Shown: positions 1 to 14,334 of the stretch, piece by piece
Numbering within the stretch: the stretch's first letter is position 1
How the letters are laid out: each line of letters opens with the position of its first letter
DNA from: a virus
UHGV virus genome: UHGV-2204358
Strand: one strand, 5' to 3'
Length of the DNA: 14,334 nt
Made by a program: the position numbers and the translations under genes
Notes under the pieces: model-generated
Database searches by the model: none
The model's input: the letters and a program-made list of their open reading frames with translations, nothing else
What the model was told of the DNA's origin: nothing

Positions 1-441
1 CTGGAAAGGCTGGGCCATACTCCTCCGGCAGAAGCAGAAAAAGCTTATTATGCTTCCATCGGAAACGATGATCTGGCAGCCTGAGTTCACAGATAAAATA
101 CTCTCCAGGAAACCCGGGGCGGTTCAGTGCTGGGAAGTCTGCGAATTAGAGAAAGCGTAAGCAAGATTGGGGGGAAAATCGGTAAACGTTTGGGCCATGA
201 AAAACAATGGTCACTACACGACCTTAGAAGAACGCTATCTACTCATCTAAGTGATCTCGGTGTTGAATTTTATGTAGTAGAACAACTGTTAGGCCATGCG
301 CTACCTGGCGTGGCGGGTGTTTACAACCGGAGTAAGTTTATGGCTAAAAAACTGGATGCTCTGGAACTCTGGACTACATATCTCAATAGCATCGCAGGTG
401 CTGATTCAAAAGTGACAATCCTCAAACAAAAGGCTGGTTAA
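1..441 (+). pseudogene. P4-type tyrosine integrase, C-terminal catalytic region only (ORF 127..441 from GTG); upstream reading frame interrupted, so probably a truncated or frameshifted integrase remnant
   Basis: Translation 127..441 shows the tyrosine-recombinase C-terminal signature (HDLRRT ... LLGHALPGVAGVYNRSKF). In-frame stops at 82-84 and 94-96 prevent upstream extension. Frame 2 upstream contains LSRKPG, which may be the displaced preceding integrase segment. Confidence 0.6.
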
Positions 442-442
442 C

Positions 443-673
443 ATGAAAAAAATGGCAATTGTTGATAAAAAGGGTCTGGAGTACATTCCTAACATCGATC
501 GTATGATCCGTGAGAAAGAATGTCGGGAGCTAACCACTCTTGCGAACAGCACACGCTGGAAGCTGGAGAAGGAAGGAAAATTTCCTAAGCGGATCAAGAT
601 TGGTTCCACTGCTGTTGCATATCGTCTTTCAGAAGTGCAGGCATGGATTCGAGGTGAGTGGGAAACGACTTAA
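443..673 (+). CDS. alpA: AlpA-family phage transcriptional regulator / excisionase-like HTH protein
   Basis: 76 aa ORF starting 2 nt after the integrase stop. Motif ELTTLANSTRWKLEKEGKFPKRIKIGSTAVAYRLSEVQAWI matches the AlpA (Phage_AlpA) helix-turn-helix pattern. Confidence 0.75.
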   Translation: MKKMAIVDKKGLEYIPNIDRMIREKECRELTTLANSTRWKLEKEGKFPKRIKIGSTAVAYRLSEVQAWIRGEWETT

Positions 674-690
674 CTATTAGGTGGGGCATT

Positions 691-1512
691 GTGGCTATAT
701 TTCATTATACAGATCTTTTTGGTTTGAAAGGTATATTAGACTCTAATTCTTTATGGGCTACAAATATATATTTCTTAAATGATAAAGAGGAGTCTAACCA
801 TGGATGTGAATGTTTTCGAAATACAATTAAAATAGTTGATGATAATATCATCCCAAAAGATAAGAAAACTATTTTGCTCAAGTCTCTTGACATGTATGAG
901 AAAGGGAAGTTACAAAAAGAAAAAGGGATTGATAAACATGTTTATAGCATATCTTTTTGTAAAGAAAACGATAAGTTAAGTCAGTGGAGAGGTTACGGAA
1001 ATAAACAGGGCGTTTGCATTGAATTTGATGCGGATGAACTTGTGAGTTTTTGTCAAAATATTTATTTAAATTGTGTTGCACATGATGTTATATATTCAAA
1101 TAATGACGATATTACAAAGATGAGTAAGGAGTTGGATGAGTTTTTTTCTTGTAATGGTATTAACATTAAAGAAATGAATGATCATTTTGTAACAATGGTC
1201 TCTACGTATCAATTTATATCTAAATATATCCCATTTTTTAAACATCCTAGTTTTATCGAAGAAAATGAATTTAGACTGGTGTTTACTCCGTGGATACAAA
1301 TGCCAGATGTGAAATTTAGAATAAATAATAATGGTATCATCCCTTATATCATTATTAATAATAAAGATAATAGAAAGTTACCAATTAAAAGCATTACAAT
1401 TGGCCCGACAAGCGATTATGATTTTATTGAGGCTGGTATAAAAATGTTTTTGGATTCAAGAGGATTTGGTTCTGTGGAAATTAAATCCTCATCAATTCCA
1501 TTCAGGGGGTAA
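691..1512 (+). CDS. DUF2971-like protein in AT-rich cargo segment; candidate accessory or anti-phage gene
   Basis: Long ORF (track 658..1512). Start most likely GTG 691, with AGGTGG 6 nt upstream at 679-684. N-terminal FHYT...GILDSNSLWATNIYFLNDKEE, mid SISFCKENDKLSQWRGYGNKQGVCIEFD and FKHPSFIEENEFRLVF resemble DUF2971 signatures recalled from memory. Sequence is visibly AT-rich, suggesting foreign origin. Confidence 0.6.
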   Translation: MAIFHYTDLFGLKGILDSNSLWATNIYFLNDKEESNHGCECFRNTIKIVDDNIIPKDKKTILLKSLDMYEKGKLQKEKGIDKHVYSISFCKENDKLSQWRGYGNKQGVCIEFDADELVSFCQNIYLNCVAHDVIYSNNDDITKMSKELDEFFSCNGINIKEMNDHFVTMVSTYQFISKYIPFFKHPSFIEENEFRLVFTPWIQMPDVKFRINNNGIIPYIIINNKDNRKLPIKSITIGPTSDYDFIEAGIKMFLDSRGFGSVEIKSSSIPFRG

Positions 1513-1557
1513 GGATTAACACTCTTAATCTATGATATTATAAAAATGGTAGATAAA

Positions 1558-1577
1558 GGCGACCAGAATTGGTCGCC
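1558..1577. terminator. Perfect 8-bp inverted repeat (GGCGACCA GAAT TGGTCGCC) between convergent genes; probable bidirectional or minus-strand intrinsic terminator
   Basis: Stem-loop seen directly. On the minus strand it is followed by a T-rich run (TTTATCTACCATTTTTATAAT). It lies 46 nt after the plus-strand stop at 1512 and 67 nt after the minus-strand stop at 1644. Confidence 0.45.
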
Positions 1578-1643
1578 AATGTGAGTATATAGTTAGCCTT
1601 AATCAGAATACGAGGTTATCGCCTGATAGGCAATGTGAACAGT

Positions 1644-2000
1644 TCAATATTTAGGTGGTTCAACAAGAGCGTTTATCATTGCTCTCAAATTATCGCGAAC
1701 ACTTATCCAAGTCTGTTCTGCTCGTTCTAACTCATCAGTGTACAACTTTAATGTTTTATCTATGCCATATGTGGCTATTAAATTTATAGCTTCTTGTAAT
1801 TTTTCGGGATTATTCCTTCTTGGGGGAGTGAATATACCGCGGATTTTTCCGGTAATTAAAGCTTTACGGTGTCTACATAGAATACCTTTACTTCCTGCTG
1901 GACAATTACAAGTCATGATTAGAGAGCCAGAATCGTTTGATACAGTGACTATGTATACATCCAAACTACTGCTACTTGTTGCGAAGAATTCGTATTTCAT
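1644..2000 (-). CDS. Small SWIM-type zinc-finger protein (C-x-C-x9-C-x-H), unknown function
   Basis: 118 aa ORF with strong RBS (AAGGAG, 7 nt before the ATG at 2000). Motif CNCPAGSKGILCRH fits the SWIM zinc-finger pattern CxCxnCxH. Lies 27 nt downstream of the RHH gene on the same strand (operon). Confidence 0.6.
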   Translation of the reverse strand: MKYEFFATSSSSLDVYIVTVSNDSGSLIMTCNCPAGSKGILCRHRKALITGKIRGIFTPPRRNNPEKLQEAINLIATYGIDKTLKLYTDELERAEQTWISVRDNLRAMINALVEPPKY

Positions 2001-2027
2001 GTGTTAGCTCCTTGACTTCAATTATTC

Positions 2028-2219
2028 TTATCCTTTTGGTTCAATACCGCGCCGTAGCAGCTCTTTGCGCCCTAATTCTTTAAGCCAGTTGGCTAGGCTT
2101 ATGCCGTCGCTCTGCGCTTCTTTGTCGAATTGCTCTTTTAGCTCTGGAGAAATTCGCATTCTGAATTGTGGAGATTGCCCATCACCCTTAGGACTTTTAT
2201 CGCGTTTGATCGTTGACAA
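2028..2219 (-). CDS. Arc/Mnt-like ribbon-helix-helix DNA-binding protein; candidate repressor or antitoxin
   Basis: C-terminal translation SPQFRMRISPELKEQFDKEAQSDGISLANWLKELGRKELLRRGIEPKG matches the Arc-type RHH pattern (PQFnlRlp.elke....A...g.S.N). Start is uncertain: TTG at 2219 with AGGTGG upstream, or ATG at 2159. The long 2028..2342 ORF in the track is probably an over-extension. Confidence 0.55.
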   Translation of the reverse strand: MSTIKRDKSPKGDGQSPQFRMRISPELKEQFDKEAQSDGISLANWLKELGRKELLRRGIEPKG

Positions 2220-2265
2220 GTGACCACCTATTGAATTAGCCTTTTCATTGTTAGGTGACCACCTT
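2220..2265. promoter_or_regulatory. Divergent promoter/operator region with two direct copies of GTGACCACCT (2220-2229 and 2256-2265)
   Basis: Repeats seen directly in the intergenic region between the minus-strand RHH gene and the plus-strand replication operon. A TTGACA hexamer lies at 2213-2218. Confidence 0.3.
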
Positions 2266-2358
2266 AACACGGAGGCACTTAAAAAAGCAAAGCCCGAAGG
2301 TGCTAGGAACACCAACGGGCTTCTAACCACCAACGATAGCAACAGTATCGAGGTAGCT

Positions 2359-2562
2359 ATGAGAAATCATACCACACACCCGCAAGGGCGGGACCCGCAC
2401 AACCTGAATAAATACATCTGGCGTTTTATCGCCCTGAGTACGGCACAACCGCGCGTGATTACCATCGAGGCCGCCAGCGAACAGGAAGCCCGGCTGCAAT
2501 CCCCAACTGGCTACGTGATGATATTCGCCGCCCGTATTCGTCAGGAGGTGTGCCATGAATGA
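2359..2562 (+). CDS. Small Icd-like (host cell division inhibitor-like) protein typical of P4-like satellites
   Basis: 67 aa from ATG 2359 with GAGGT RBS. Sequence MRNHTTHPQGRDPHNLNKYIWRFIALSTAQPRVITIEAASEQEARLQSPTGYVMIFAARIRQEV resembles, from memory, the small proteins annotated Icd-like in enterobacterial P4-like elements. The track ORF 2248..2562 is probably over-extended. Confidence 0.5.
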   Translation: MRNHTTHPQGRDPHNLNKYIWRFIALSTAQPRVITIEAASEQEARLQSPTGYVMIFAARIRQEVCHE

Positions 2563-2779
2563 TCTTTATTTTAAAGTGCTGACACATGCTGAAAACGCGC
2601 TCGTTTGTGGCAAAAATATGCGAGAAATCTTATCAACCTGGCTTGATGGGACAACAAATGCGGAACACGATGAACGGGATGCTAATTTAGCTGGAGCGTT
2701 AATTACGTTACTTGATCCTGTCATCAAAGAGCTGGATGAAGCTATAAAAATACACGACCAGAGCTATACCGGAGAATAA
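2555..2779 (+). CDS. Hypothetical small protein (74 aa), translationally coupled to the upstream gene
   Basis: ATG at 2555 overlaps the upstream stop (ATGAATGA). AGGAGG RBS at about 2543-2548. No recognisable domain. Confidence 0.55.
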   Translation: MNDLYFKVLTHAENALVCGKNMREILSTWLDGTTNAEHDERDANLAGALITLLDPVIKELDEAIKIHDQSYTGE

Positions 2780-2782
2780 AAA

Positions 2783-3070
2783 ATGAAAAATAAATTTTCT
2801 GGCTTTATTGCCAGCGGTCAAACTCATTCAAAAATCAGCCTTGGGGATATTTTCAAAGACAGCTATGGCTATCGGGTAAAGATTATTTCGGTTGATGATC
2901 GTCGTGTCTCTTATTTGCGTGATGGTTATGATTTTGAATGTGTTATGCCGCGTCAGCAGTTCGAAAGAGATTTCATTCTGGTAAAAAATTGCAAGACAGA
3001 TAATCAGAGGCGTGCCGCAGGCTATATCCGTAAAATTCGGGCAATGTTAGTTGCCGGAGGTAACAAATGA
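2783..3070 (+). CDS. Hypothetical small protein, DUF4222-like
   Basis: 95 aa ORF with GGAGAA RBS. Pattern YGYRVKIISVDDRRVSYLRDGYDFECVMPRQQFERDF resembles DUF4222 prophage proteins (recalled, not searched). Confidence 0.55.
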   Translation: MKNKFSGFIASGQTHSKISLGDIFKDSYGYRVKIISVDDRRVSYLRDGYDFECVMPRQQFERDFILVKNCKTDNQRRAAGYIRKIRAMLVAGGNK

Positions 3071-4887
3071 AACGTGCTCCGAACTTAAAATACCAACCGC
3101 GCGACAAAATGACGGAAGTCATCATTTTTGCTGGCAGTGATGCCTGGAGCCATGCAAAAGAATGGAATGAATGGGCAGGTAAGCATATTGCAGCAGATGA
3201 TACACCACCAGTCATTCTGGGTACGGAACAACTGGAAAACCTGGATGATATGCAAATTATCGATGAAGGCCGTCATTATGTGCGTGTTTATCGTGCCGGA
3301 AAGATTGCAGAGAAAAGTCTGACGAAGGTTGCGACATTACTTGCTATTGCAGGCGTAAAGGAAGCACGTTGTTACCGTAGCTTTGTTGATCGAGAGCCTG
3401 AAGACTGGACTCCGCGCCTTGTCGGCCTAAAAGCTGAAGCGGAGCATGGGGAAAGTCTGGTGATTGAACTGCCAGTGAAGAAGGCAGAGCGCAAAAATGA
3501 CGAGCGTGCTTCATCTTTGGCGTTGAATCAGATGGGGGCCAGCCAGCGCGGTGAAGTTCTCCTTGCACATTATGGCGGTGAACTGGCAATCAATGCCGAC
3601 TCTGACACCGTTCATCATTACAACGGCGTTGTATGGGAGCCGGTTCAGGATAAAGAGTTACAGCGTGCTATGGCGCAGATTTTCATTGATGCGGAGATCA
3701 GCTATTCGCAGAACGCTATTAAATCGGCGGTAGATACCATGAAGTTAAGTTTGCCTGTAATGGGGAATACAGCCCGTAACCTGATTGGATTCAGTAACGG
3801 GGTATTTGATACCAGAACTGGTAATTTTCGGGAGCATAACAAAAACGACTGGTTGTTAATTGCCAGTGAATTACCTTTCAGCCCACCAGCAGAGGGGGAA
3901 ACGCTGGCAACACATGCGCCGAATTTCTGGAAGTGGTTGCGCCGTTCGGTGGCTGAGAATGACCGCAAGGCAGATCGCGTACTGGCGGCATTATTCATGG
4001 TGCTGGCGAACCGGTACGACTGGCAGTTATTCATTGAGGTAACAGGGCCGGGGGGAAGTGGTAAAAGTGTGATGGCGGAGATTTGCACCATGCTGGCGGG
4101 TAAGGCTAATACAGTATCAGCAAGCATGAAGGCGCTGGAAGATGCAAGGGAACGTGCGTTAGTGGTTGGCTTTTCGCTGATTATCATGCCGGATATGACC
4201 CGCTACGCTGGTGATGGGGCAGGGATTAAGGCCATTACAGGCGGTGACAAGGTGGCAATTGACCCGAAACACAAAGCCCCCTATTCAACGCGTATTCCGG
4301 CAGTAGTGCTGGCGGTTAACAATAACGCCATGTCATTCAGTGACCGCAGCGGGGGGATCTCACGTCGTCGGGTGATATTCAATTTTTCGGAAGTTGTACC
4401 GGAGAACGAACGCGATTCGATGCTGGCGGAAAAAATAGAAGGTGAGCTGGCGGTAGTGATTCGTCATCTGCTTACACGGTTTGCTGATCAGGACGAAGCC
4501 AGACGCCTGTTATATGAGCAGCAGAAATCTGAAGAAGCACTGGCGATAAAGCGAGAGGGGGATTCGCTGGTGGACTTCTGCGGCTATCTCATGGCATCGG
4601 TAATGTGTGATGGCCTGTTAGTGGGTAATGCTGAAATTGTGCCATTCAGCCCACGCAGGTATCTCTATCATGCCTATCTGGCTTATATGAGGGCACATGG
4701 GTTTGGTAAACCTGTAACACTGACGCGCTTCGGTAAAGATATGCCGGGGGCAATGGCGGAATATGGCAGGGAGTATATGAAACGGAAAACGAAGCACGGT
4801 TTGCGTTCAAACGTGACACTGACGGAGGAATCAGAAGACTGGATGCCATCATGTGTATCGGTCACTAATGACGATAGCAAAAATTAA
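3067..4887 (+). CDS. Satellite replication protein: P4-alpha/D5-type primase-helicase (COG3378-like) with P-loop NTPase domain
   Basis: 606 aa ORF. Walker A motif VTGPGGSGKSV. Start ATG overlaps the previous stop (ATGA) with GGAGGT RBS. Followed immediately by an iteron array, the classic pri/rep-ori arrangement. Confidence 0.85.
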   Translation: MKRAPNLKYQPRDKMTEVIIFAGSDAWSHAKEWNEWAGKHIAADDTPPVILGTEQLENLDDMQIIDEGRHYVRVYRAGKIAEKSLTKVATLLAIAGVKEARCYRSFVDREPEDWTPRLVGLKAEAEHGESLVIELPVKKAERKNDERASSLALNQMGASQRGEVLLAHYGGELAINADSDTVHHYNGVVWEPVQDKELQRAMAQIFIDAEISYSQNAIKSAVDTMKLSLPVMGNTARNLIGFSNGVFDTRTGNFREHNKNDWLLIASELPFSPPAEGETLATHAPNFWKWLRRSVAENDRKADRVLAALFMVLANRYDWQLFIEVTGPGGSGKSVMAEICTMLAGKANTVSASMKALEDARERALVVGFSLIIMPDMTRYAGDGAGIKAITGGDKVAIDPKHKAPYSTRIPAVVLAVNNNAMSFSDRSGGISRRRVIFNFSEVVPENERDSMLAEKIEGELAVVIRHLLTRFADQDEARRLLYEQQKSEEALAIKREGDSLVDFCGYLMASVMCDGLLVGNAEIVPFSPRRYLYHAYLAYMRAHGFGKPVTLTRFGKDMPGAMAEYGREYMKRKTKHGLRSNVTLTEESEDWMPSCVSVTNDDSKN

Positions 4888-4900
4888 ACTTATGGAATAA

Positions 4901-5123
4901 CTGTTCACCACTGTTCACCCTGTCATAAATATCTTTTATATCAGTATATTATAGGGTGAACAGTTATTTATGAACTGTTCACCAAACTATTCACTGTTCA
5001 CCTTTTTGATTGTTTATTGAGCTTCAAGGGTGAACAGTGGTGAACAGTTGGTGAATAGTTTTTGTGAAACTGTTTACCCATTAACATTATGAATTAAAAG
5101 AGAAAATATCAAAAGGTGAACAG
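4901..5123. repeat. Iteron-type replication origin: at least 9 copies of 9-bp CTGTTCACC / GGTGAACAG in both orientations with AT-rich spacers
   Basis: CTGTTCACC at 4901, 4911, 4975, 4994. GGTGAACAG at 4955, 5029, 5039, 5115. Variants GGTGAATAG at 5050 and CTGTTTACC at 5070. Tandem pairs at 10-bp phasing. AT-rich stretch 4921-4954. Sits directly downstream of the primase-helicase gene. Confidence 0.7.
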
Positions 5124-5174
5124 ATGAAGGGTTAAAACGCAAAAATTTTAATTTACTGCTGTGAGATAAAGCCT

Positions 5175-5420
5175 ATGACAGCGAAGCACACAAAAAAATC
5201 ACAATCGCACGCCCTTGATTTGACGGAATACTGGTTAAGGGTGTCGATAAAAATCATCGACCGCAACGCCGGGGAAGGATACGCGAAAGCACATCCCGAA
5301 CTGATTAGCGCATTCATGACAACGGCGGCTGCAAACTTTGCCACTCTGACCGAACGGGAGATTGCTGAAGCGGAGGAAGTGACAACAATCAATATTAAGT
5401 CCGGAGAGCAGGCCGCATGA
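5175..5420 (+). CDS. Hypothetical protein (81 aa)
   Basis: ORF whose stop overlaps the start of the SSB-like gene (ATGA). No recognisable domain. Confidence 0.5.
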   Translation: MTAKHTKKSQSHALDLTEYWLRVSIKIIDRNAGEGYAKAHPELISAFMTTAAANFATLTEREIAEAEEVTTINIKSGEQAA

Positions 5421-5866
5421 CGGCGCAAATATCAGTTTACGGGCGGTCGGTGGACGACCCGCAGACAAAACAGACCAGCAAGGGCACCCCCATGACGTTG
5501 GCGCGTATGGCGGTATCACTGCCCTGCAGTCAGTCGGATGACGGTCAGGCGACGATGTGGTTATCTGTCCTGGCGTTTGGCAGACAAGCCGACGCGCTGG
5601 CAAAGCATCACAAAGGCGAACTCCTGAGCGTGGCGGGTAACATGCAGATGAGCCAGTGGACTGGACAGAACGGCGAAACGCGGCAGGGCTGGCAGGTTAT
5701 CGCAGACAGCGTAATCAGTGCGCGATCGGTGCGACCGGGCGGCAATAAAGGCCAACAGGGGCAGGCTACTGACGCACTGAACAGAGCAAAACAACAGGCA
5801 GATCAGCAAGGAAGCCAGCCACCAGTGGGAGATAATGAGCAATGGGGAGATGATATCCCGTTTTAA
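5417..5866 (+). CDS. ssb: SSB-like single-stranded DNA-binding protein with conserved C-terminal acidic DDIPF tail
   Basis: 149 aa. OB-fold-like N-terminal region (ISVYGR...TMWLSVLAFGRQA...GNMQMSQWTGQNGETRQGWQVIADSV), Gly/Gln-rich linker, and the protein ends in WGDDIPF, the hallmark SSB C-terminal tip. Confidence 0.75.
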   Translation: MTAQISVYGRSVDDPQTKQTSKGTPMTLARMAVSLPCSQSDDGQATMWLSVLAFGRQADALAKHHKGELLSVAGNMQMSQWTGQNGETRQGWQVIADSVISARSVRPGGNKGQQGQATDALNRAKQQADQQGSQPPVGDNEQWGDDIPF

Positions 5867-5885
5867 ATATTGCCAATAAAAAAAG

Positions 5886-5909
5886 GCCGGAAAAAATAAA
5901 TTTTCCGGC
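5886..5909 (+). terminator. Stem-loop (GCCGGAAAA AATAAA TTTTCCGGC) after the SSB-like gene; probable intrinsic terminator
   Basis: 9-bp inverted repeat seen directly, 20 nt after the stop at 5866. Separates the replication operon from the capsid-gene pair. Confidence 0.45.
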
Positions 5910-6083
5910 ATGCTACATAAATCCCGACCAAAGGGAGTGAAGATATTAACACTAATTGTCCGCACTGAAGTTGTCACCCCAAAACTTTATACAACATTGC
6001 ACTCGGTTGCATGTGTTCGCATGACAAATATCGGTGATAGCATATATCCACAATTATTTTTAATGAATGCAAAGAGGATGCGT

Positions 6084-7124
6084 ATGGTTGATTTATATTC
6101 GCCTACTCAGCTTGTACAGGTGGTTAATGCTGTAGATGTACAAAAAAAATTAAATGCGTTGTTTACCAGTTTGTTTTTCACTCGCTCGGTAATGTTTGAA
6201 TCGAGAGACATTATTCTTGATACGATCGACGATCCAAATATCCCGATCGCGGCGTTTTGCTCTCCTATGGTGGGCAGTAAAGTTTCACGAGATGAGGGAT
6301 ACGAATCAAAAACAATTCGTCCAGGTTATATGAAGCCGAAAAGCAGCATTGATCCAAATAAGTTAGCTGTGCGCCCTGTTGGTGTGTCACCTGAGCAATA
6401 CAATGCTTTTGGGGCGCGTAATATTAAAGTTAAACAGGCGATTGTAAATCAGGCTAAAGCTATTCGTGCACGTATTGAATGGCTTGCTGTTCAGGCAATC
6501 ACAACGGGGAAAAATATCATTGAGGGCGATGGTATTGAACGTTATGAGCTGGACTGGAATATAAAACCACAAAATATCATCACTCAGTCTGGCGGTACTG
6601 AGTGGTCAGGTAAGGATAAAGAAACTTTTGATCCAAATGATGATATTGAGAGCTACGCAGAATTTAGTGAGGGCGTCACTAATATCATCATTATGGGTGG
6701 TAATGTATGGAAGAAATACCGTTCATTCAGAGCGATAAAAGAGGCTTTGGATACCCGTCGTGGTTCTAATTCCGAACTGGAAACGGCCCTTAAAGACCTT
6801 GGTGATTCGGTGAGTTTTAAAGGGTATATGGGCGATGTTGCGATTGTTGTTTACAGCGGGCGTTATACCGACGAGGACGGAACAGAAAAACATTTCCTTG
6901 ATCCTGATTTGATGGTGCTTGGCAATACGGCTCTTCAGGGGATTGTCGCCTATGGCGGTATTCAGGATCCGGAGCTAATCCGAATGGGGCTGACTAAAGC
7001 CGAACTTGCACCGAAAAACTATATTGTGCCTGGTGATCCGGCTATTGAATATGTGCAGACACATTCAGCACCACAGCCAATACCGGCCCGCATCAATCGT
7101 TTTGTTACCGTTCGCATTGGCTAA
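6084..7124 (+). CDS. Lambda gpE-like major capsid protein homolog (Phage_cap_E family), diverged copy encoded by the island
   Basis: Translation aligns along its length with lambda gpE (GYMKPK, ITQSGGTEWS, DTRRGSNSELETA, AIVVYSG), at roughly half identity by eye to the prophage E copy at 9861..10649. Start placed at ATG 6084 (AAGAGG RBS, matches the gpE N-terminus MVDLYSPTQL). The track start at 5910 gives an unsupported N-terminal extension. Confidence 0.85.
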   Translation: MVDLYSPTQLVQVVNAVDVQKKLNALFTSLFFTRSVMFESRDIILDTIDDPNIPIAAFCSPMVGSKVSRDEGYESKTIRPGYMKPKSSIDPNKLAVRPVGVSPEQYNAFGARNIKVKQAIVNQAKAIRARIEWLAVQAITTGKNIIEGDGIERYELDWNIKPQNIITQSGGTEWSGKDKETFDPNDDIESYAEFSEGVTNIIIMGGNVWKKYRSFRAIKEALDTRRGSNSELETALKDLGDSVSFKGYMGDVAIVVYSGRYTDEDGTEKHFLDPDLMVLGNTALQGIVAYGGIQDPELIRMGLTKAELAPKNYIVPGDPAIEYVQTHSAPQPIPARINRFVTVRIG

Positions 7125-7133
7125 GGGGGAGCA

Positions 7134-7475
7134 ATGGCTACTCATTACACTGAACTCATGGCTGGCACTGAAGCACTGGTGACTACGCTGGGGATATTTT
7201 CAGCTAATAAAGGGGTAATTCCTGCATTTACGCCACTGATGCAGGAAGATGCAACAGGTGCACTGGTGGTATGGGATGGTTCGAGCGTAGGTAAAGCGGT
7301 TTATGTTTCCGCTGTACAAATCGACACCGCGAAAAAAACACAGGCTCAGGTCTATAAGACAGGTGTCTTAAATGTTGATGCTCTGAACTGGCCTGAGTCT
7401 GTTAAAGAACTGTCAGTAAAGGTTGCAGCGTTTGTTGGCTCAGGTATTTCTGTTCAGCCGCTGGCTCGTGTGTAA
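7134..7475 (+). CDS. Lambda gpD-like head decoration protein homolog
   Basis: 113 aa. TPLMQEDATGALVVWDGSSVGKAV ... WPE ... AFVGSGISV parallels lambda gpD ([25 protein letters not shown] ... WPE ... AFAGTAISIV). Strong RBS AAGGGGGAG. Confidence 0.75.
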   Translation: MATHYTELMAGTEALVTTLGIFSANKGVIPAFTPLMQEDATGALVVWDGSSVGKAVYVSAVQIDTAKKTQAQVYKTGVLNVDALNWPESVKELSVKVAAFVGSGISVQPLARV

Positions 7476-7486
7476 AGGGGGATACA

Positions 7487-7870
7487 ATGCAGAATGATTA
7501 CAATGACCTTAAGCCAATTGCCGAAATGATGTACCCGAATCCAGCTGTAGAGGAATTAAAAGCTATCGCTGACAAAATGTGTTTAAGCGAGCGCCTTGTT
7601 GATATGAATCAGGTGATGGAAATTACAACCCTGAGTCGTCGTACACTGCTAAACCTTGAGGCTAGTGGAGAGTTCCCGGAGCGTGTGCAGGTTACGGAAG
7701 GGCGTAAGGCCTGGTATTTAAGTGAAGTGATCGACTGGATAAATAATATTCCTCGCGCTTCTGAATATTGCCGCGTACCTGTCCCAAAAAAGCCAGATGC
7801 GGCGCTATGCCTCAAGATTGAGCGTGTACGCCGCAATGCACGGGATGGTCGCTATAAGCTGATTGGTTGA
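7487..7870 (+). CDS. Second AlpA/Vis-like HTH DNA-binding protein (127 aa)
   Basis: Central segment MNQVMEITTLSRRTLLNLEASGEFPERVQVTEGRKAWYLSEVIDWI matches the AlpA-family HTH pattern. RBS AAGGGGGA. Confidence 0.6.
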   Translation: MQNDYNDLKPIAEMMYPNPAVEELKAIADKMCLSERLVDMNQVMEITTLSRRTLLNLEASGEFPERVQVTEGRKAWYLSEVIDWINNIPRASEYCRVPVPKKPDAALCLKIERVRRNARDGRYKLIG

Positions 7871-8795
7871 TGAAATTAGGGCCCGCTCTGGCTGGCGGGT
7901 CCTTTCCGGCGATCCAGAACGTTACGGGGCGTCAGGCGCGCAGTTTTTCTCTATTTATGGAAATTTTCCGGTTTAAGGCTTTTCCGTTCTTCTTCGCCGT
8001 AACTTTATGTTTTTATTTAAAATACCCCCTGAAAAGAAAGGAAATGACAGGCGCTGAAAACGGGCTTTTTGGCCTCTGCCGTTTCCTTTCTCTGATTTTG
8101 TTGCTGTTTGTCACGGCCTATCGCCAGAAAAAACTCTCATGCTTGCGTTGAAATCAGGCTCTACACTAAAGTAGTCGATAACGCGCCACTGGCTTCACTT
8201 TATGGTCGTGGCCTACTTCTGCACTATCGCAACAGCCTTACGAGTCCTGCTGGTAAGCTGTTGAGTAAGCAGAATACGGATTACAGGGCATCCTATGCGT
8301 ATTGTGGCGGATCGAACACAACCGCTCAGGTGAAACCCGTTTCGTTACTATTATAGGAAAATCTTCATACCCAACTTGCTTGATAACTTCTTCTGGTTGT
8401 TTTAACCATGTAGAGATGATATTTCCCTGAAAAATTGCTTTCCCTCTGACTAGATGCGCATACCACATTTTGTCTTCGACATAGAACCGCGCAGAAATGA
8501 TTACTCCACAGATACGGTTCTTTCGTCAATTCATTATGGAATGGGCTCAAAAGGGAGAGCTCAACAATAAAGTTCTGGTAGGATAATTGTATGCTTACAA
8601 TTGTAATGAAAGGAGAGTTAGAGCCTGGTGTGATTCTGTGTGTAAAATTTTAGCAAATTACGTTTAATTAAGTGTCGTAACACACCATGCCTGTCAGATA
8701 TTACGCTTATCATAGAGTGTATGATATTGCTTTTCTAAACAATAAGCTGTTATATTTTATGGGTATTGTGTTTAATTTTTAATGACGGCTCTAAC

Positions 8796-9731
8796 ATGAC
8801 CCCTGATGCAGTTTTGATTGCTAAAGCAATACTAATGTTGAAAGCAGATGTTGATTATACAAAAGATTATGTATTCCCTATTGCATTATCTTTTTTATCG
8901 GCGCTTATGGGAGGCTTAACTGCTTATTGCATCAATAATAGGCAGGAGAAGATTAAAATAGAAACGGAGAAATTTAATTCTGCTAATACGCTTATGATGG
9001 TTTCTTTTCAGATGATAAATACACTTGTGGGAATTAAAAGTAGTTATATTGGTTTGAGATCTAGAAATCCAATATTAAGAGCGCTGGCAATAAATGAATT
9101 TTTATTTAACGCCGGGGAGGTAAATTTCGATATTAGCCGTCTTTCATTTATAAAAAAGATACCCACAGCTAATAAATCTCTATTTGAGAGGTTTGTTTTT
9201 TTTATTAAGTACAAGATACTAAAACATGAACTTATTATGCCGTCAGATGAAGAAATTGGAAAGTCATGGAGGAATATTGCTCGAATTGATGCTTTTTTGT
9301 TTAATTATAATTTTGTTTTGAAAAGTTTAATTGTCAGGAATCAGCTTGATTCAGATTTAAAGAAACGTTTGTCTAATATTGCCAGTAAAGACAAGCCAGT
9401 GTTTGAAATTAAATTGGATGAAATAAAGAAAGAAATTGGTGCTAGTGAGTTGTCAAAATATATTGATTTGACAGAAAGTATAGTGGCGTTGATCGATTAT
9501 CTCATAAGGGAAATTGATTCATTTATTATGGAGTTCCCGAAGGTAGCGGAAAGTAATATTGAGTTATCTAAGGTGAATAAAGCTAAATTATCAACAATTG
9601 TTCTCAATAAGCCAGCATATTTGGCTGCATTGATTCCAATTCCACAACCTGACTTTGAATTAGTATCTTTACTAGTGGGTATGAGCCCAGAAGAAGCAAA
9701 GCAAAGATATTCGTATTCTGGTTGGCACTAG
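8796..9731 (+). CDS. Hypothetical AT-rich protein with a predicted N-terminal transmembrane helix; function unknown
   Basis: Long ORF (track 8766..9731 from TTG; ATG at 8796 preferred). Hydrophobic segment VFPIALSFLSALMGGLTAYCI. Strongly AT-rich, unlike the flanking DNA. No recognisable domain. Confidence 0.6.
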   Translation: MTPDAVLIAKAILMLKADVDYTKDYVFPIALSFLSALMGGLTAYCINNRQEKIKIETEKFNSANTLMMVSFQMINTLVGIKSSYIGLRSRNPILRALAINEFLFNAGEVNFDISRLSFIKKIPTANKSLFERFVFFIKYKILKHELIMPSDEEIGKSWRNIARIDAFLFNYNFVLKSLIVRNQLDSDLKKRLSNIASKDKPVFEIKLDEIKKEIGASELSKYIDLTESIVALIDYLIREIDSFIMEFPKVAESNIELSKVNKAKLSTIVLNKPAYLAALIPIPQPDFELVSLLVGMSPEEAKQRYSYSGWH

Positions 9732-9860
9732 TAGATATAGTGACATACCTTTGCGAAGCGCTGTATTGCTACGTGTATTGCTTTTTAGCTGTATTTTGAT
9801 AGAGAGAGCCATTTATTTCATTAAAAATCATTCAGTTCCTTTCATATTTGACTCATGTAA

Positions 9861-10649
9861 CCCAAGCATGAGGTGAATCCGCAGATGACCCTGCGTCGCC
9901 TGCCGGATGAAGATCCGCAGAATCTGGCGGACCCGGCTTACCGCCGCCGTCGCATCATCATGCAGAACATGCGTGACGAAGAGCTGGCCATTGCTCAGGT
10001 CGAAGAGATGCAGGCAGTTTCTGCCGTGCTTAAGGGCAAATACACCATGACCGGTGAAGCCTTCGATCCGGTTGAGGTGGATATGGGCCGCAGTGAGGAG
10101 AATAACATCACGCAGTCCGGCGGCACGGAGTGGAGCAAGCGTGACAAGTCCACGTATGACCCGACCGACGATATCGAAGCCTACGCGCTGAACGCCAGCG
10201 GTGTGGTGAATATCATCGTGTTCGATCCGAAAGGCTGGGCGCTGTTCCGTTCCTTCAAAGCCGTCAAGGAGAAGCTGGATACCCGTCGCGGCTCTAATTC
10301 CGAGCTGGAGACAGCGGTAAAAGACCTGGGCGAAGCGGTGTCCTATAAGGGAATGTATGGCGATACGGCGATCGTCGTGTATTCCGGACAGTACGTGGAA
10401 AACGACGTCAAAAAGAACTTCCTGCCGGACAACACGATGGTGCTGGGGAACACTCAGGCACGCGGTCTGCGCACCTATGGCTGCATTCAGGATGCGGACG
10501 CACAGCGCGAAGGTATTAACGCCTCTGCCCGCTACCCGAAAAACTGGGTGACCACCGGCGATCCGGCGCGTGAGTTCACCATGATTCAGTCAGCACCGCT
10601 GATGCTGCTGGCTGACCCTGATGCGTTCGTGTCCGTACAACTGGCGTAA
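9861..10649 (+). pseudogene. E: Lambda major capsid protein E, 5'-truncated (lacks about the first 80 codons)
   Basis: Translation from 9861 (PKHEVNPQMTLRRLPDEDPQ ... FVSVQLA) is near-identical to lambda gpE from about residue 80 to the C-terminus. A TAA stop at 9858-9860 and unrelated AT-rich DNA lie immediately upstream. The only in-frame start is GTG 9873. Confidence 0.8.
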
Positions 10650-10651
10650 TC

Positions 10652-10678
10652 ATGGCCCTTCGGGGCCATTTTCTCTCT
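10652..10678 (+). terminator. Stem-loop ATGGCCC-TTCG-GGGCCAT followed by TTTCTCTCT between E and FI; probable partial terminator or attenuating hairpin
   Basis: 7-bp perfect stem with a TTCG tetraloop and a downstream T-rich tract, 3 nt after the E stop. Confidence 0.4.
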
Positions 10679-10690
10679 GTGGAGGAGTCC

Positions 10691-11089
10691 ATGACGAAAG
10701 ATGAACTGATTGCCCGTCTCCGGTCGCTGGGTGAACAACTGAACCGTGATGTCAGCCTGACGGGGACGAAAGAAGAACTGGCGCTCCGTGTGGCAGAGCT
10801 GGAAGAGGAGCTTGATGACACGGATGAAACTGCCGGTCAGGACACCCCTCTCAGCCGGGAAAATGTGCTGACCGGACATGAAAATGAGGTGGGATCAGCG
10901 CAGCCGGATACCGTGATTCTGGATACGTCTGAACTGGTCACGGTCGTGGCACTGGTGAAGCTGCATACTGATGCACTTCACGCCACGCGGGATGAACCTG
11001 TGGCATTTGTGCTGCCGGGAACGGCGTTTCGTGTCTCTGCCGGTGTGGCAGCCGAAATGACAGAACGTGGCCTGGCCAGAATGCAATAA
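10691..11089 (+). CDS. FI: Lambda FI (DNA-packaging / head assembly protein)
   Basis: MTKDELIARLRSLGEQLNRDVSLTGTKEELALRVAELEEELDD... matches lambda gpFI. GGAGGAG RBS before ATG 10691. The track ORF starting at 10652 is over-extended. Confidence 0.85.
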   Translation: MTKDELIARLRSLGEQLNRDVSLTGTKEELALRVAELEEELDDTDETAGQDTPLSRENVLTGHENEVGSAQPDTVILDTSELVTVVALVKLHTDALHATRDEPVAFVLPGTAFRVSAGVAAEMTERGLARMQ

Positions 11090-11100
11090 CGGGAGGCACT

Positions 11101-11454
11101 GTGGCTGATTTCGATAACCTGTTCGATGCTGCCATTGCCCGCGCCGATGAAACGATACGCGGGTACATGGGAACGTCAGCCACCATGACATCCGGTGAGC
11201 AGTCAGGTGCGGTGATACGTGGTGTTTTTGATGACCCTGAAAATATCAGCTATGCCGGACAGGGCGTGCGCGTTGAAGGCTCCAGCCCGTCCCTGTTTGT
11301 CCGGACTGATGATGTGCGGCAACTGCGGCGTGGAGACACGCTGACCATCGGTGAGGAAAACTTCTGGATAGACCGGGTTTCGCCGGATGATGGCGGAAGC
11401 TGTCATCTCTGGCTTGGGCGGGGCGTACCGCCTGCCGTTAACCGTCGCCGCTGA
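11101..11454 (+). CDS. FII: Lambda FII (head-tail joining protein)
   Basis: MADFDNLFDAAIARADETIRGYMGTSATMTSGEQSGAVIRGVFDD... matches lambda gpFII. GTG start with GGGAGG RBS. Confidence 0.85.
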   Translation: MADFDNLFDAAIARADETIRGYMGTSATMTSGEQSGAVIRGVFDDPENISYAGQGVRVEGSSPSLFVRTDDVRQLRRGDTLTIGEENFWIDRVSPDDGGSCHLWLGRGVPPAVNRRR

Positions 11455-11465
11455 AAGGGGGATGT

Positions 11466-12044
11466 ATGGCCATAAAAGGTCTTGAGCAGGCCGTTGAAAA
11501 CCTCAGCCGTATCAGCAAAACGGCGGTGCCCGGTGCCGCCGCAATGGCCATTAACCGCGTTGCTTCATCCGCGATATCGCAGTCGGCGTCACAGGTTGCC
11601 CGTGAGACAAAGGTACGCCGGAAACTGGTAAAGGAAAGGGCCAGGCTGAAAAGGGCCACGGTCAAAAATCCGCAGGCCAGAATCAAAGTTAACCGGGGGG
11701 ATTTGCCCGTAATCAAGCTGGGTAACGCGCGGATTGTCCTGTCCCGACGCAGGCGTCGTAAAAAGGGGCAGCGTTCAGCCCTGAAAGGTGGCGGCAGCGT
11801 GCTTGTGGTGGGAAACCGTCGTATTCCCGGCGCGTTTATTCAGCAACTGAAAAATGGCCGGTGGCATGTCATGCAGCGTGTGGCCGGGAAAAACCGTTAC
11901 CCCATTGATGTAGTGAAAATCCCGATGGCGGTGCCGCTGACCACGGCGTTTAAACAAAATATTGAGCGGATACGGCGTGAACGTCTTCCGAAAGAGCTGG
12001 GCTATGCGCTGCAGCATCAACTGAGGATGGTAATAAAGCGATGA
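11466..12044 (+). CDS. Z: Lambda Z (tail completion protein)
   Basis: MAIKGLEQAVENLSRISKTAVPGAAAMAINRVASSAISQSASQVARETKV... matches lambda gpZ. Confidence 0.85.
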   Translation: MAIKGLEQAVENLSRISKTAVPGAAAMAINRVASSAISQSASQVARETKVRRKLVKERARLKRATVKNPQARIKVNRGDLPVIKLGNARIVLSRRRRRKKGQRSALKGGGSVLVVGNRRIPGAFIQQLKNGRWHVMQRVAGKNRYPIDVVKIPMAVPLTTAFKQNIERIRRERLPKELGYALQHQLRMVIKR

Positions 12045-12436
12045 AACATACTGAACTCCGTGCAGCCGTACTGGATGCACTGGAGAAGCATGACACCGGG
12101 GCGACGTTTTTTGATGGTCGCCCCGCTGTTTTTGATGAGGCGGATTTTCCGGCAGTTGCCGTTTATCTCACCGGCGCTGAATACACGGGCGAAGAGCTGG
12201 ACAGCGATACCTGGCAGGCGGAGCTGCATATCGAAGTTTTCCTGCCTGCTCAGGTGCCGGATTCAGAGCTGGATGCGTGGATGGAGTCCCGGATTTATCC
12301 GGTGATGAGTGATATCCCGGCACTGTCAGATTTGATCACCAGTATGGTGGTCAGTGGCTATGACTACCGGCGCGACGATGATGCGGGCCTGTGGAGTTCA
12401 GCCGATATGACTTATGTCATTACCTATGAAATGTGA
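12041..12436 (+). CDS. U: Lambda U (tail terminator protein)
   Basis: [54 protein letters not shown]... matches lambda gpU. Start overlaps the Z stop (ATGA). Confidence 0.85.
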
Positions 12437-12443
12437 GGACGCT

Positions 12444-13184
12444 ATGCCTGTACCAAATCCTACAATGCCGGTGAAAGGTGCCGGGACCACCCTGTGGGTT
12501 TATAAGGGGAGCGGTGACCCTTATGCGAATCCGCTTTCAGACGTTGACTGGTCGCGTCTGGCAAAAGTTAAAGACCTGACGCCCGGCGAACTGACCGCTG
12601 AGTCCTATGACGACAGCTATCTCGATGATGAAGATGCAGACTGGACTGCGACCGGGCAGGGGCAGAAATCTGCCGGAGATACCAGCTTCACGCTGGCGTG
12701 GATGCCCGGAGAGCAGGGGCAGCAGGCGCTGCTGGCGTGGTTTAATGAAGGCGATACCCGTGCCTATAAAATCCGCTTCCCGAACGGCACGGTCGATGTG
12801 TTCCGTGGCTGGGTCAGCAGTATCGGTAAGGCGGTGACGGCGAAGGAAGTGATCACCCGCACGGTGAAAGTCACCAATGTGGGCCGTCCGTCGATGGCAG
12901 AAGATCGCAGCACGGTAACAGCGGCAACCGGCATGACCGTGACGCCTGCCAGCACCTCGGTGGTGAAAGGGCAGAGCACCACGCTGACCGTGGCCTTCCA
13001 GCCGGAGGGCGTAACCGACAAGAGCTTTCGTGCGGTGTCTGCGGATAAAACAAAAGCCACCGTGTCGGTCAGTGGTATGACCATCACCGTGAACGGCGTT
13101 GCTGCAGGCAAGGTCAACATTCCGGTTGTATCCGGTAATGGTGAACTTGCTGCGGTTGCAGAAATCACCGTCACCGACAGTTAA
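12444..13184 (+). CDS. V: Lambda V (major tail tube protein with C-terminal Ig-like domain)
   Basis: [50 protein letters not shown]... matches lambda gpV. GAGGA RBS before ATG 12444. The track start at 12414 is over-extended. Confidence 0.85.
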
Positions 13185-13199
13185 TCCGGAGAGTCAGCG

Positions 13200-13622
13200 A
13201 TGTTCCTGAAAACCGAATCATTTGAACATAACGGCGTGACCGTCACGCTTTCTGAACTGTCAGCCCTGCAGCGTATTGAGCATCTTGCCTGGTTGAAAGA
13301 GCAGGAAAAAAAGGCTGAATCCAGTGGCAACCTGCAGGTGTCTGTAGAGGCGCTTATCAGAGGCGGGGCGTTTCTGGTGGCGATGTCTCTGTGGCATAAC
13401 CATCCACAGAAGACAAAGCTGCCGTCCATGAATGAAGCCATTACGCAGATTGAGCAGGAAGTGCTTACCACCTGGCCCACGGAGGCAATTGCTCAGGCTG
13501 AAAACGTGGTGTTACGTCTGTCCGGAATGTCTGAGTTTGTGGTGAATAATGCCCCTGAACAGGCAGAGGACGCCGGGCCTGCAGAGCCTGTTTCTGCGGG
13601 AAAGTGTTCGACGGTGAGCTGA
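13200..13622 (+). CDS. G: Lambda G (tail assembly chaperone)
   Basis: MFLKTESFEHNGVTVTLSELSALQRIEHLAWLKEQEKKAESSGN ... SAGKCSTVS matches lambda gpG. Confidence 0.85.
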   Translation: MFLKTESFEHNGVTVTLSELSALQRIEHLAWLKEQEKKAESSGNLQVSVEALIRGGAFLVAMSLWHNHPQKTKLPSMNEAITQIEQEVLTTWPTEAIAQAENVVLRLSGMSEFVVNNAPEQAEDAGPAEPVSAGKCSTVS

Positions 13623-14038
13623 GTTTTGCCCTGAAACTGGCGCGTGAGATGGGGCGACCCGACTGGCGCGCCATGCTTGCCGGGATGTCATCCACGGAGT
13701 ATGCCGACTGGCACCGCTTTTACAGTACCCATTATTTTCATGATGTTCTGCTGGATATGCACTTTTCCGGGCTGACGTACACCGTACTCAGCCTGTTTTT
13801 CAGCGATCCGGATATGCATCCGCTGGATTTCAGTCTGCTGAACCGGCGCGAGGCTGACGAAGAGCCTGAAGATGATGTGCTGATGCAGAAAGCGGCAGGG
13901 CTTGCCGGAGGCGTTCGTTTTGGCCCGGACGGGAATGAAGTTATCCCTACTTCCCCGGATGTGGCGGACATGACGGAGGATGACGTAATGCTGATGACAG
14001 TATCAGAAGGGATCGCAGGAGGAGTCCGGTATGGCTGA
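13200..14038 (+). CDS. GT: Lambda G-T tail assembly chaperone fusion made by programmed -1 ribosomal frameshift (T portion 13604..14038 in the -1 frame)
   Basis: Slippery heptamer G GGA AAG at 13598-13604 near the end of G. The -1 frame continues as VFDGELSFALKLAREMGRPDWRAMLAGMSS..., matching lambda gpT, and ends at TGA 14036-14038. Confidence 0.7.
13598..13604 (+). other. Programmed -1 frameshift slippery site GGGAAAG
   Basis: Heptamer present in the G frame (codons gcG GGA AAG), exactly where lambda G-T frameshifting occurs. Confidence 0.7.
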
Positions 14039-14334
14039 ACCGGTAGGCGATCTGGTCGTTGATTTGAGTCTGGATGCGGCCAGATTTGACGAGCAGATGG
14101 CCAGAGTCAGGCGTCATTTTTCCGGTACGGAAAGTGATGCGAAAAAAACAGCGGCAGTCGTTGAACAGTCGCTGAGCCGACAGGCGCTGGCTGCACAGAA
14201 AGCGGGGATTTCCGTCGGGCAGTATAAAGCCGCCATGCGTATGCTGCCTGCACAGTTCACCGACGTGGCCACGCAGCTTGCAGGCGGGCAAAGTCCGTGG
14301 CTGATCCTGCTGCAACAGGGTGGTCAGGTTAAGG
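14031..14334 (+). CDS. H: Lambda H tape measure protein, N-terminal part (continues beyond window end)
   Basis: ATG 14031. Translation MAEPVGDLVVDLSLDAARFDEQMARVRRHFSGTESDAKKTAAVVEQSLSRQALAAQKAGISVGQYKAAMRMLPAQFTDVATQLAGGQSPWLILLQQGGQVK matches the lambda gpH N-terminus. No stop before the window end. Confidence 0.85.
   Translation, partial: MAEPVGDLVVDLSLDAARFDEQMARVRRHFSGTESDAKKTAAVVEQSLSRQALAAQKAGISVGQYKAAMRMLPAQFTDVATQLAGGQSPWLILLQQGGQVK

Follow-up and report, generated by a model that had tools for sequence, protein, structure and literature searches.

A helper-embedded PICI carries an SSB with a conserved D-x-I-P-F tip among its replication genes

[quoted passage not shown] It belongs to the replication zone of a phage satellite, a helper-embedded PICI (HE-PICI), and with good probability works there as a canonical SSB that would coat single-stranded satellite DNA and dock host partner proteins through its C-terminal tip. 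All positions refer to the window, that is, the whole stretch of 14,334 nucleotides that was analysed. The satellite SSB plausibly serves replication of the satellite itself; we infer that it forms a tetramer, binds ssDNA, docks partners and benefits replication. The coding sequence and the parts of its product are as follows:

5417-5866, plus strand: ssb coding sequence, 149 amino acids and a stop codon (open reading frame list, sequence, and matches to PF00436, TIGR00621 and phrog_44)
5417-5725, plus strand: OB-fold ssDNA-binding domain, residues 1-103 (AlphaFold2, Foldseek, and aromatic residues aligned to E. coli SSB, EcSSB)
5726-5839, plus strand: disordered Q/G-rich linker, residues 104-141 (low pLDDT; the most variable, indel-rich part of the SSB family)
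5840-5863, plus strand: C-terminal tip QWGDDIPF (family consensus DDP[YFW]GD[NDGE]IPF, from 110 full-length sequences)

A first-pass annotation of this DNA had described an open reading frame at 5417-5866 ending in DDIPF, and both details are exact in the open reading frame list and in the sequence. The frame opens with ATG and closes with TAA, and its product ends in GDNEQWGDDIPF (at greater length, PPVGDNEQWGDDIPF). A Shine-Dalgarno sequence, GGAGAG, stands ahead of the ATG at 5403-5408, and the N-terminal residues MTAQI are invariant across 110 aligned full-length homologs, which fixes the start at 5417. The ATG overlaps the TGA of an upstream 81-aa open reading frame (ATGA at 5417-5420), an arrangement indicative of translational coupling between the two genes. 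The identical protein is found in E. coli ET490 (WP_000126721.1), where it bears the RefSeq name "single-stranded DNA-binding protein". A hairpin was observed on the far side of the gene:

5886-5909, no strand assigned: hairpin, 9-bp G+C, GCCGGAAAA/TTTTCCGGC, 20 nt past the ssb stop

In the terminator scan this strong hairpin scored as a terminator for the minus strand only, because the T-run lies on that strand while on the plus strand an A-run lies ahead of the hairpin; the genes nearby, however, all lie on the plus strand.

Assignment of the product to the SSB family is supported by several profiles. PF00436 matched residues 4-99 at 55.6 bits (gathering score 26), and TIGR00621 'ssb' matched end to end, over residues 4-149, with 66.2 bits against a cut-off of 53.95, so that the SSB profile search proposed in the first-pass annotation gave results above the cut-off in both cases. 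The family phrog_44, 'single strand DNA binding protein', matched at 4.6e-36. When the sequence was searched against the PDB, the best 21 of 24 matches were SSBs, the first of them that of Thermotoga maritima (1z9f, 2.7e-11); EcSSB chains reached only E=1.5e-4 to 3.8e-4, behind the SSBs of Thermotoga, Coxiella and Thermus.

The earlier reading had also been staked on an OB fold, and one is predicted. In an AlphaFold2 model built on 110 homologs, the OB domain (residues 1-103) has block-mean pLDDT values of 71-91 and contains strands at residues 2-11, 16-19, 25-35, 45-54, 69-82 and 88-102 and a helix at 55-62. The tail is disordered, with pLDDT below 50 at residues 104-118 and 128-149 and block means of about 50 or lower from residue 101 on; a weak helix is predicted within it at 114-129. 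The best 50 matches of the model in a Foldseek comparison with the PDB were all bacterial SSBs at probability 1.00, and among these the target-normalised TM values were 0.62-0.78.

One part of the earlier proposal, that the protein has a different OB domain, must be given up, since the domain is a standard PF00436 OB fold that has only diverged. The comparison was made with EcSSB, whose reference sequence was confirmed to be identical to PDB 1eqq/4mz9: BLASTP gave 22% identity over the 98 aa of the OB domain, and a multiple alignment gave 28%. At 22% over 98 aa the protein lacks the close similarity that would place it in the host-type/conjugative-plasmid EcSSB clade, and on these identities ssb is an old, diverged SSB lineage within the same domain family as EcSSB. 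A recent copy of the host ssb was considered as a source and rejected at an identity of only 22-28%. Residues W48, F54 and W81 align with W54, F60 and W88 of EcSSB; the first two are invariant and the third is nearly invariant in the family (110 homologs). At the position of EcSSB W40 the family has a nearly invariant Cys37, and EcSSB H55 is replaced by Leu49 in the island protein. With these two substitutions, the mode of DNA binding and the oligomeric state could differ from those of EcSSB.

The C-terminal tip is conserved well beyond this single protein. It had been allowed at the outset that the DDIPF ending might be a coincidence, and this is not so: a D-x-I-P-F end is present in 105 of 120 representatives of 90% clusters, most of the others being truncated partial sequences. 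Those 105 tips are DNIPF (43), DDIPF (35), DGIPF (14), DEIPF (11) and DSIPF (2). Over the 110 full-length sequences, position -1 is always F, P occupies -2 in 106, I occupies -3 in 102 and D occupies -5 in 109; an aromatic residue stands at -7, as in the EcSSB end ...MDFDDDIPF, the last five residues of which are identical to those of the island protein. Measured as the fraction with the majority residue, column conservation is highest in the OB domain (0.88), followed by the tip (0.82) and the linker (0.66, with 21% gaps). Pairwise comparisons of ssb with its cf-PICI and Salmonella island orthologs gave dN/dS of 0.16-0.19 at dS of 0.8-1.5, and on these values a pseudogene was rejected. To judge by these values, the SSB is a functional protein under selection, and the selection acts specifically on the tip. 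The C-terminus of SSB is the docking site for host genome-maintenance proteins, and the conservation of the tip is consistent with this established role. Mobile elements, including phages and conjugative plasmids, commonly carry an SSB of their own with a host-compatible tip.

It could be argued instead that ssb is a decaying or non-functional leftover that the island carries passively, considering that the satellite capsid and decoration genes of EcCICFT073 have no detectable phenotype (PMC6092414) and some PICI genes may accordingly be dispensable. Such an explanation is extremely improbable. It is contradicted by the dN/dS values, and 110 sequences share the same N-terminus, terminal F and aromatic residues (in the case of W81, nearly all of them do). 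Intact copies are also widespread: a megablast search of 5426 complete E. coli genomes found related DNA in 1287, in nearly every case on the chromosome, and in 913 of the genomes the match covers at least 80% of ssb.

The gene belongs to an island that occupies positions 1-9872 of the window and is a helper-embedded PICI that interrupts the lambda-E-like major capsid gene (E) of a lambdoid prophage and runs in the same direction as that gene. Late genes of this helper fill positions 9873-14334, beginning with the 3' fragment of the E gene (9873-10649) and continuing with FI, FII, Z, U, V, G and T; attL lies beyond the window. ET490 has a near-identical locus in which the 5' capsid fragment precedes int and the 3' fragment follows the cargo; past the 3' fragment come FI, head-tail joining, tail, U, V, G, T and tape-measure genes. 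The ET490 island consists of int, alpA, DUF2971, SWIM, an icd-like remnant, a hypothetical gene, DUF4222, pri, the 81-aa gene, ssb, major capsid, head decoration, an alpA-like gene and cargo. Downstream of ssb, the island in the window carries head genes of its own:

about 6084-7124: the island's own lambda-E-like major capsid gene
7134-7475: the island's own D-like decoration gene

Satellites of this kind (helper-embedded satellites, HES, or HE-PICIs) of the capE type have been described, with 201 elements at the capE site, and primase, SSB and DUF5906 make up the replication category or zone of HES/PICIs (Tommasini, Mageeney, Williams 2023; PMC10111431; bioRxiv 10.1101/2022.07.18.500453). 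Helper and embedded satellite are nested and at first replicate as one composite (PMC10111431). Helper-dependent induction, replication and transfer have been shown experimentally for EcCICFT073 (PMC6092414) and for 11capE (PMC10111431).

Several further features of the island were observed along the way. Behind the decoration gene, positions 7487-7870 (plus strand) encode a second AlpA-family protein of 127 aa (phrog_2790), in a region corresponding to the c1501-to-rppA region of EcCICFT073; the island in the window has no RppA homolog, and among 80 related loci a single one has it. A 321-aa open reading frame (8766-9731, plus strand; GC about 0.30-0.34) with no Pfam or PADLOC match occupies the variable slot that separates the alpA-like gene from attR. 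In near-identical islands this slot is filled by a HEPN+DUF262 pair, a TIR-domain protein, or a restriction endonuclease or Abi protein, the HEPN+DUF262 pair occupying exactly the 8766-9731 slot in ET490, and it looks like a defence-cargo hotspot with a candidate defence gene. A second low-GC accessory block (0.29-0.37) past alpA, at 658-1512 (plus strand) and 1644-2000 (minus strand), encodes one protein with DUF2971 and one with a SWIM zinc finger, and PADLOC gave weak matches here to its candidate systems PDC-S31 (2.4e-4) and PDC-S62 (4.9e-5). Positions 2287-2562 (plus strand) hold an incomplete remnant of an Icd-like cell-division inhibitor, according to the RefSeq annotation of near-identical ET490. 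A scan of the window for lambda cosN (GGGCGGCGACCT, up to two mismatches) found none, and an Rfam gathering scan of the whole window found no RNA family and no P4-type C4/isrK immunity RNA.

Within this int-alpA island, ssb lies downstream of, and in the same orientation as, pri and an iteron-bearing ori. The replication zone is ordered DUF4222, pri, ori, 81-aa gene, ssb, and the components upstream of ssb are:

2783-3070, plus strand: DUF4222 gene, overlapping the start of pri (PF13973 at 3.4e-22)
3067-4887, plus strand: Pri, replication initiator/helicase (D5_N, DUF5906 P-loop, P4-alpha-type origin-binding C-terminus)
4896-5125, no strand assigned: predicted replication origin, with opposed GGTGAACAG/CTGTTCACC iterons around A+T-rich DNA; families D1-D4
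5175-5420, plus strand: 81-aa gene (phrog_1231, 8.8e-48), coupled to ssb through the ATGA overlap

Pri carries the Pfam domains D5_N, DUF5906 (P-loop) and Pox_D5, and its residues 498-594 match 1ka8, the origin-binding domain of P4 alpha, at E=1.9e-24. Residues 1-168 gave no Pfam match even at E up to 1, and Pri is shorter than P4 alpha (606 aa vs 777 aa), a protein with an N-terminal primase. For these reasons no primase catalytic domain can be recognised in Pri, which is a negative result and not a proof of absence. The predicted origin contains eight exact TGTTCACC octamers where 0.38 would be expected, and this octamer is the one annotated 'ori type 1 repeat' in P4 ori and crr.

The first-pass annotation was right in placing ssb between the ori (4896-5125) and the capsid gene (about 6084-7124). 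The placement is not, as it had been called, notable, because the ori-ssb-capsid layout is the standard order of Gram-negative PICIs, found in EcCICFT073, in cf-PICIs and in 80 IMG/VR loci that carry an SSB relative. A DUF4222 gene stands upstream of pri in 74 of these 80 loci and likewise in cf-PICIs, EcCICFT073 and Salmonella islands. The cf-PICIs have a 70%-identical SSB (P0107) at the corresponding position, together with an HK97-type head module and terminase, and in Salmonella islands an SSB relative lies past a DUF927-type initiator. Two SSB-family genes were in fact observed in the Salmonella islands, at 10001-10456 and 13117-13461: a 151-aa ortholog that follows the DUF927 initiator and has a ProQ-like gene next to it, and, about 3 kb downstream of it, a second PF00436 protein of 114 aa. 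The initiators of the 80 loci are of at least three types, the third being the DUF927 type, and SSBs that are 96% identical pair either with a Pri of the window type (TGTTCACC iterons in the window) or with one of the CFT073 type, about 45% identical to the former (CTGTCTACC in EcCICFT073). By these sequence comparisons the replication zone is modular, and its recombination joint seems to be situated close to the 81-aa gene.

The 81-aa gene is directly upstream of ssb in 77 of the 80 related IMG/VR loci, whatever the initiator type. Its product is predicted by AlphaFold2 to be a helical hairpin (pLDDT 71), and a Foldseek comparison of this hairpin with the PDB gave nothing better than E=4.9. 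All 158 homologs are named 'hypothetical'. The 81-aa protein had no match in Pfam, NCBIfam or PADLOC, and the SSB had no match to a PADLOC defence system. It is possible that the two proteins together form a dedicated device that goes beyond generic coating of ssDNA, such as a loader or adaptor or an SSB regulator, which could hand ssDNA over to Pri or the host primosome or could counter a host defence directed against ssDNA or a foreign SSB. The overlap of the two genes would fit such a device, as would the persistence of their linkage across at least three Pri types, the 82% identity of the 81-aa protein with its EcCICFT073 counterpart where Pri is only 44% identical, and the confinement of both families to Enterobacterales islands. 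Nevertheless, we regard it as improbable: the Salmonella islands have the SSB but lack the 81-aa gene, the 81-aa protein matches no known family or fold in the searches above, and the linkage may simply reflect operon inheritance. There is likewise little chance that the pair is a satellite-specific adaptor with which initiators that have no primase capture the host primosome and replisome by way of the SSB tip, or that it selectively withdraws host SSB partners from the helper, an idea that comes from the absence of the pair from deposited phages and its carriage with at least three unrelated initiator/ori types. Were it true, the pair would represent a distinct step of piracy at the level of replication and not a spare copy of SSB.

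The distribution of the SSB itself bears on a further explanation. Protein clusters matching it at E<=1e-3 number 558; among the 120 clusters listed, which come from Escherichia, Shigella, Salmonella and Citrobacter, all have PF00436 and every source name shown is an SSB name. The family occurs in 25 of 72,556 plasmid records, among them records from Klebsiella, Enterobacter, Serratia and Sodalis in which the protein is about 50-65% identical, and the best tblastn match to the SSB in 50,697 deposited phage genomes is only 28-33% identical. A peptide-pattern scan of genome contigs gave one distant match in Dehalococcoidia and was uninformative on taxonomic spread. Judged by these searches, the SSB lineage essentially belongs to satellites/PICIs of the Enterobacterales and is nearly absent from deposited phages.

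A protein found in satellites and not in deposited phage genomes could act against the helper, and a satellite SSB that outcompetes host SSB or titrates its partners might slow a lambdoid helper that has no SSB of its own. The host-like tip would suit this purpose when joined to an OB domain so different from that of EcSSB, since at 22-28% identity mixed tetramers are unlikely and the satellite protein would form a separate SSB pool. We nonetheless consider interference with the helper unlikely. The effect of EcCICFT073 on lambda and phi80 has been attributed to RppA, and expression of RppA left phage replication unaffected (PMC6739421). Furthermore, blocking replication of the helper would hurt the satellite too, as the two are physically nested and begin as one composite.

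A canonical SSB that works for the satellite is therefore the reading we prefer, and a sequence of events can be proposed for it. Upon induction, AlpA would switch on the rightward operon of the satellite, as in EcCICFT073, where AlpA activates the corresponding operon (PMC6092414). Pri would bind the TGTTCACC iterons and unwind the origin, and the satellite SSB, whose OB folds presumably assemble into a homotetramer, would coat the single strands so exposed. Its D-x-I-P-F tip could dock host partners, namely the chi subunit of Pol III, DnaG, PriA and RecQ/ExoI, and the host replisome could thereby work on satellite DNA during co-replication with the helper, at a time when host SSB is in demand. 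Given a Pri with no recognisable primase domain, an SSB tip to which host DnaG and chi can bind would be useful, and recruitment of DnaG and Pol III chi would make an attractive specific role for the satellite SSB. If the tip does recruit host DnaG and Pol III for initiators that lack a primase, a replication step would be added to the piracy of packaging and capsid size.

The constructs with which replication of EcCICFT073 was tested are named pri-ori in a figure legend (PMC6092414). Judged from the construct names in that legend, which suggests that host SSB may suffice for basal replication, the satellite SSB is probably dispensable and plays an accessory part. A search of the PICI and cf-PICI literature found no experiment on a PICI SSB, and de Sousa 2023, Fillol-Salom 2018/2019, the cf-PICI preprint and the chimeric-particle preprint do not mention SSB in their text. 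The ssb annotation, the HE-PICI type, the place of SSB in the replication zone and the existence of an ortholog in a model PICI are already known. The finding therefore matters little when taken alone, as it consists of a routine SSB annotation in a satellite type and zone that have been published, with an ortholog in EcCICFT073.

The island SSB and its surroundings can be compared with known systems. With E. coli SSB (1eqq/4mz9) the protein shares the PF00436 OB fold, equivalents of W54, F60 and W88, a disordered linker, the aromatic residue at -7 and the terminal DDIPF. It differs in that the linker of E. coli SSB is about 60 aa long and has Gly/Pro-rich repeats, whereas that of the island SSB is about 38 aa and lacks them; its tip has fewer acidic residues; and Cys and Leu replace W40 and H55 of EcSSB.

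With the P4 replicon, the island shares identical TGTTCACC iterons and a Pri C-terminus homologous to the origin-binding domain of alpha. P4, in contrast, lacks ssb, and alpha is longer than Pri, at 777 aa. The P4-like genes sid, psu and delta are absent from the island, none having been found among the window open reading frames scanned, and lambda-E-like capsid, decoration and AlpA-like genes make up its late zone instead; the helpers of the island are lambdoid, whereas those of P4 are of the P2 type. With its P4-type octamers and its Pri C-terminus, the island thus combines an initiator and ori of P4 type with a PICI of lambdoid helpers.

The 11capE HE-PICI (NAR Genom Bioinform) has in common with the island its location inside, and co-orientation with, a lambda-E-like capsid gene, as well as a capsid gene of its own. 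In the work describing it (PMC10111431), SSB was classed by Pfam only, and we found there no residue, structure or distribution analysis of SSB and no experiment on it.

Finally, EcCICFT073 (CFT073, 1.381-1.389 Mb) contains DUF4222, pri, an 85-aa gene, ssb, perC, a hypothetical gene, major capsid, head decoration and further genes. Unlike the island, it adjoins phoQ and does not lie within a prophage, its Pri is the diverged one (44% identical) and its iterons are of the CTGTCTACC type, and its SSB is a protein of 136 aa with a shorter linker, followed by perC. That SSB (WP_000126698.1) is nevertheless a 68%-identical ortholog that starts with MTAQI, ends in GDDIPF and stands in an equivalent gene order.
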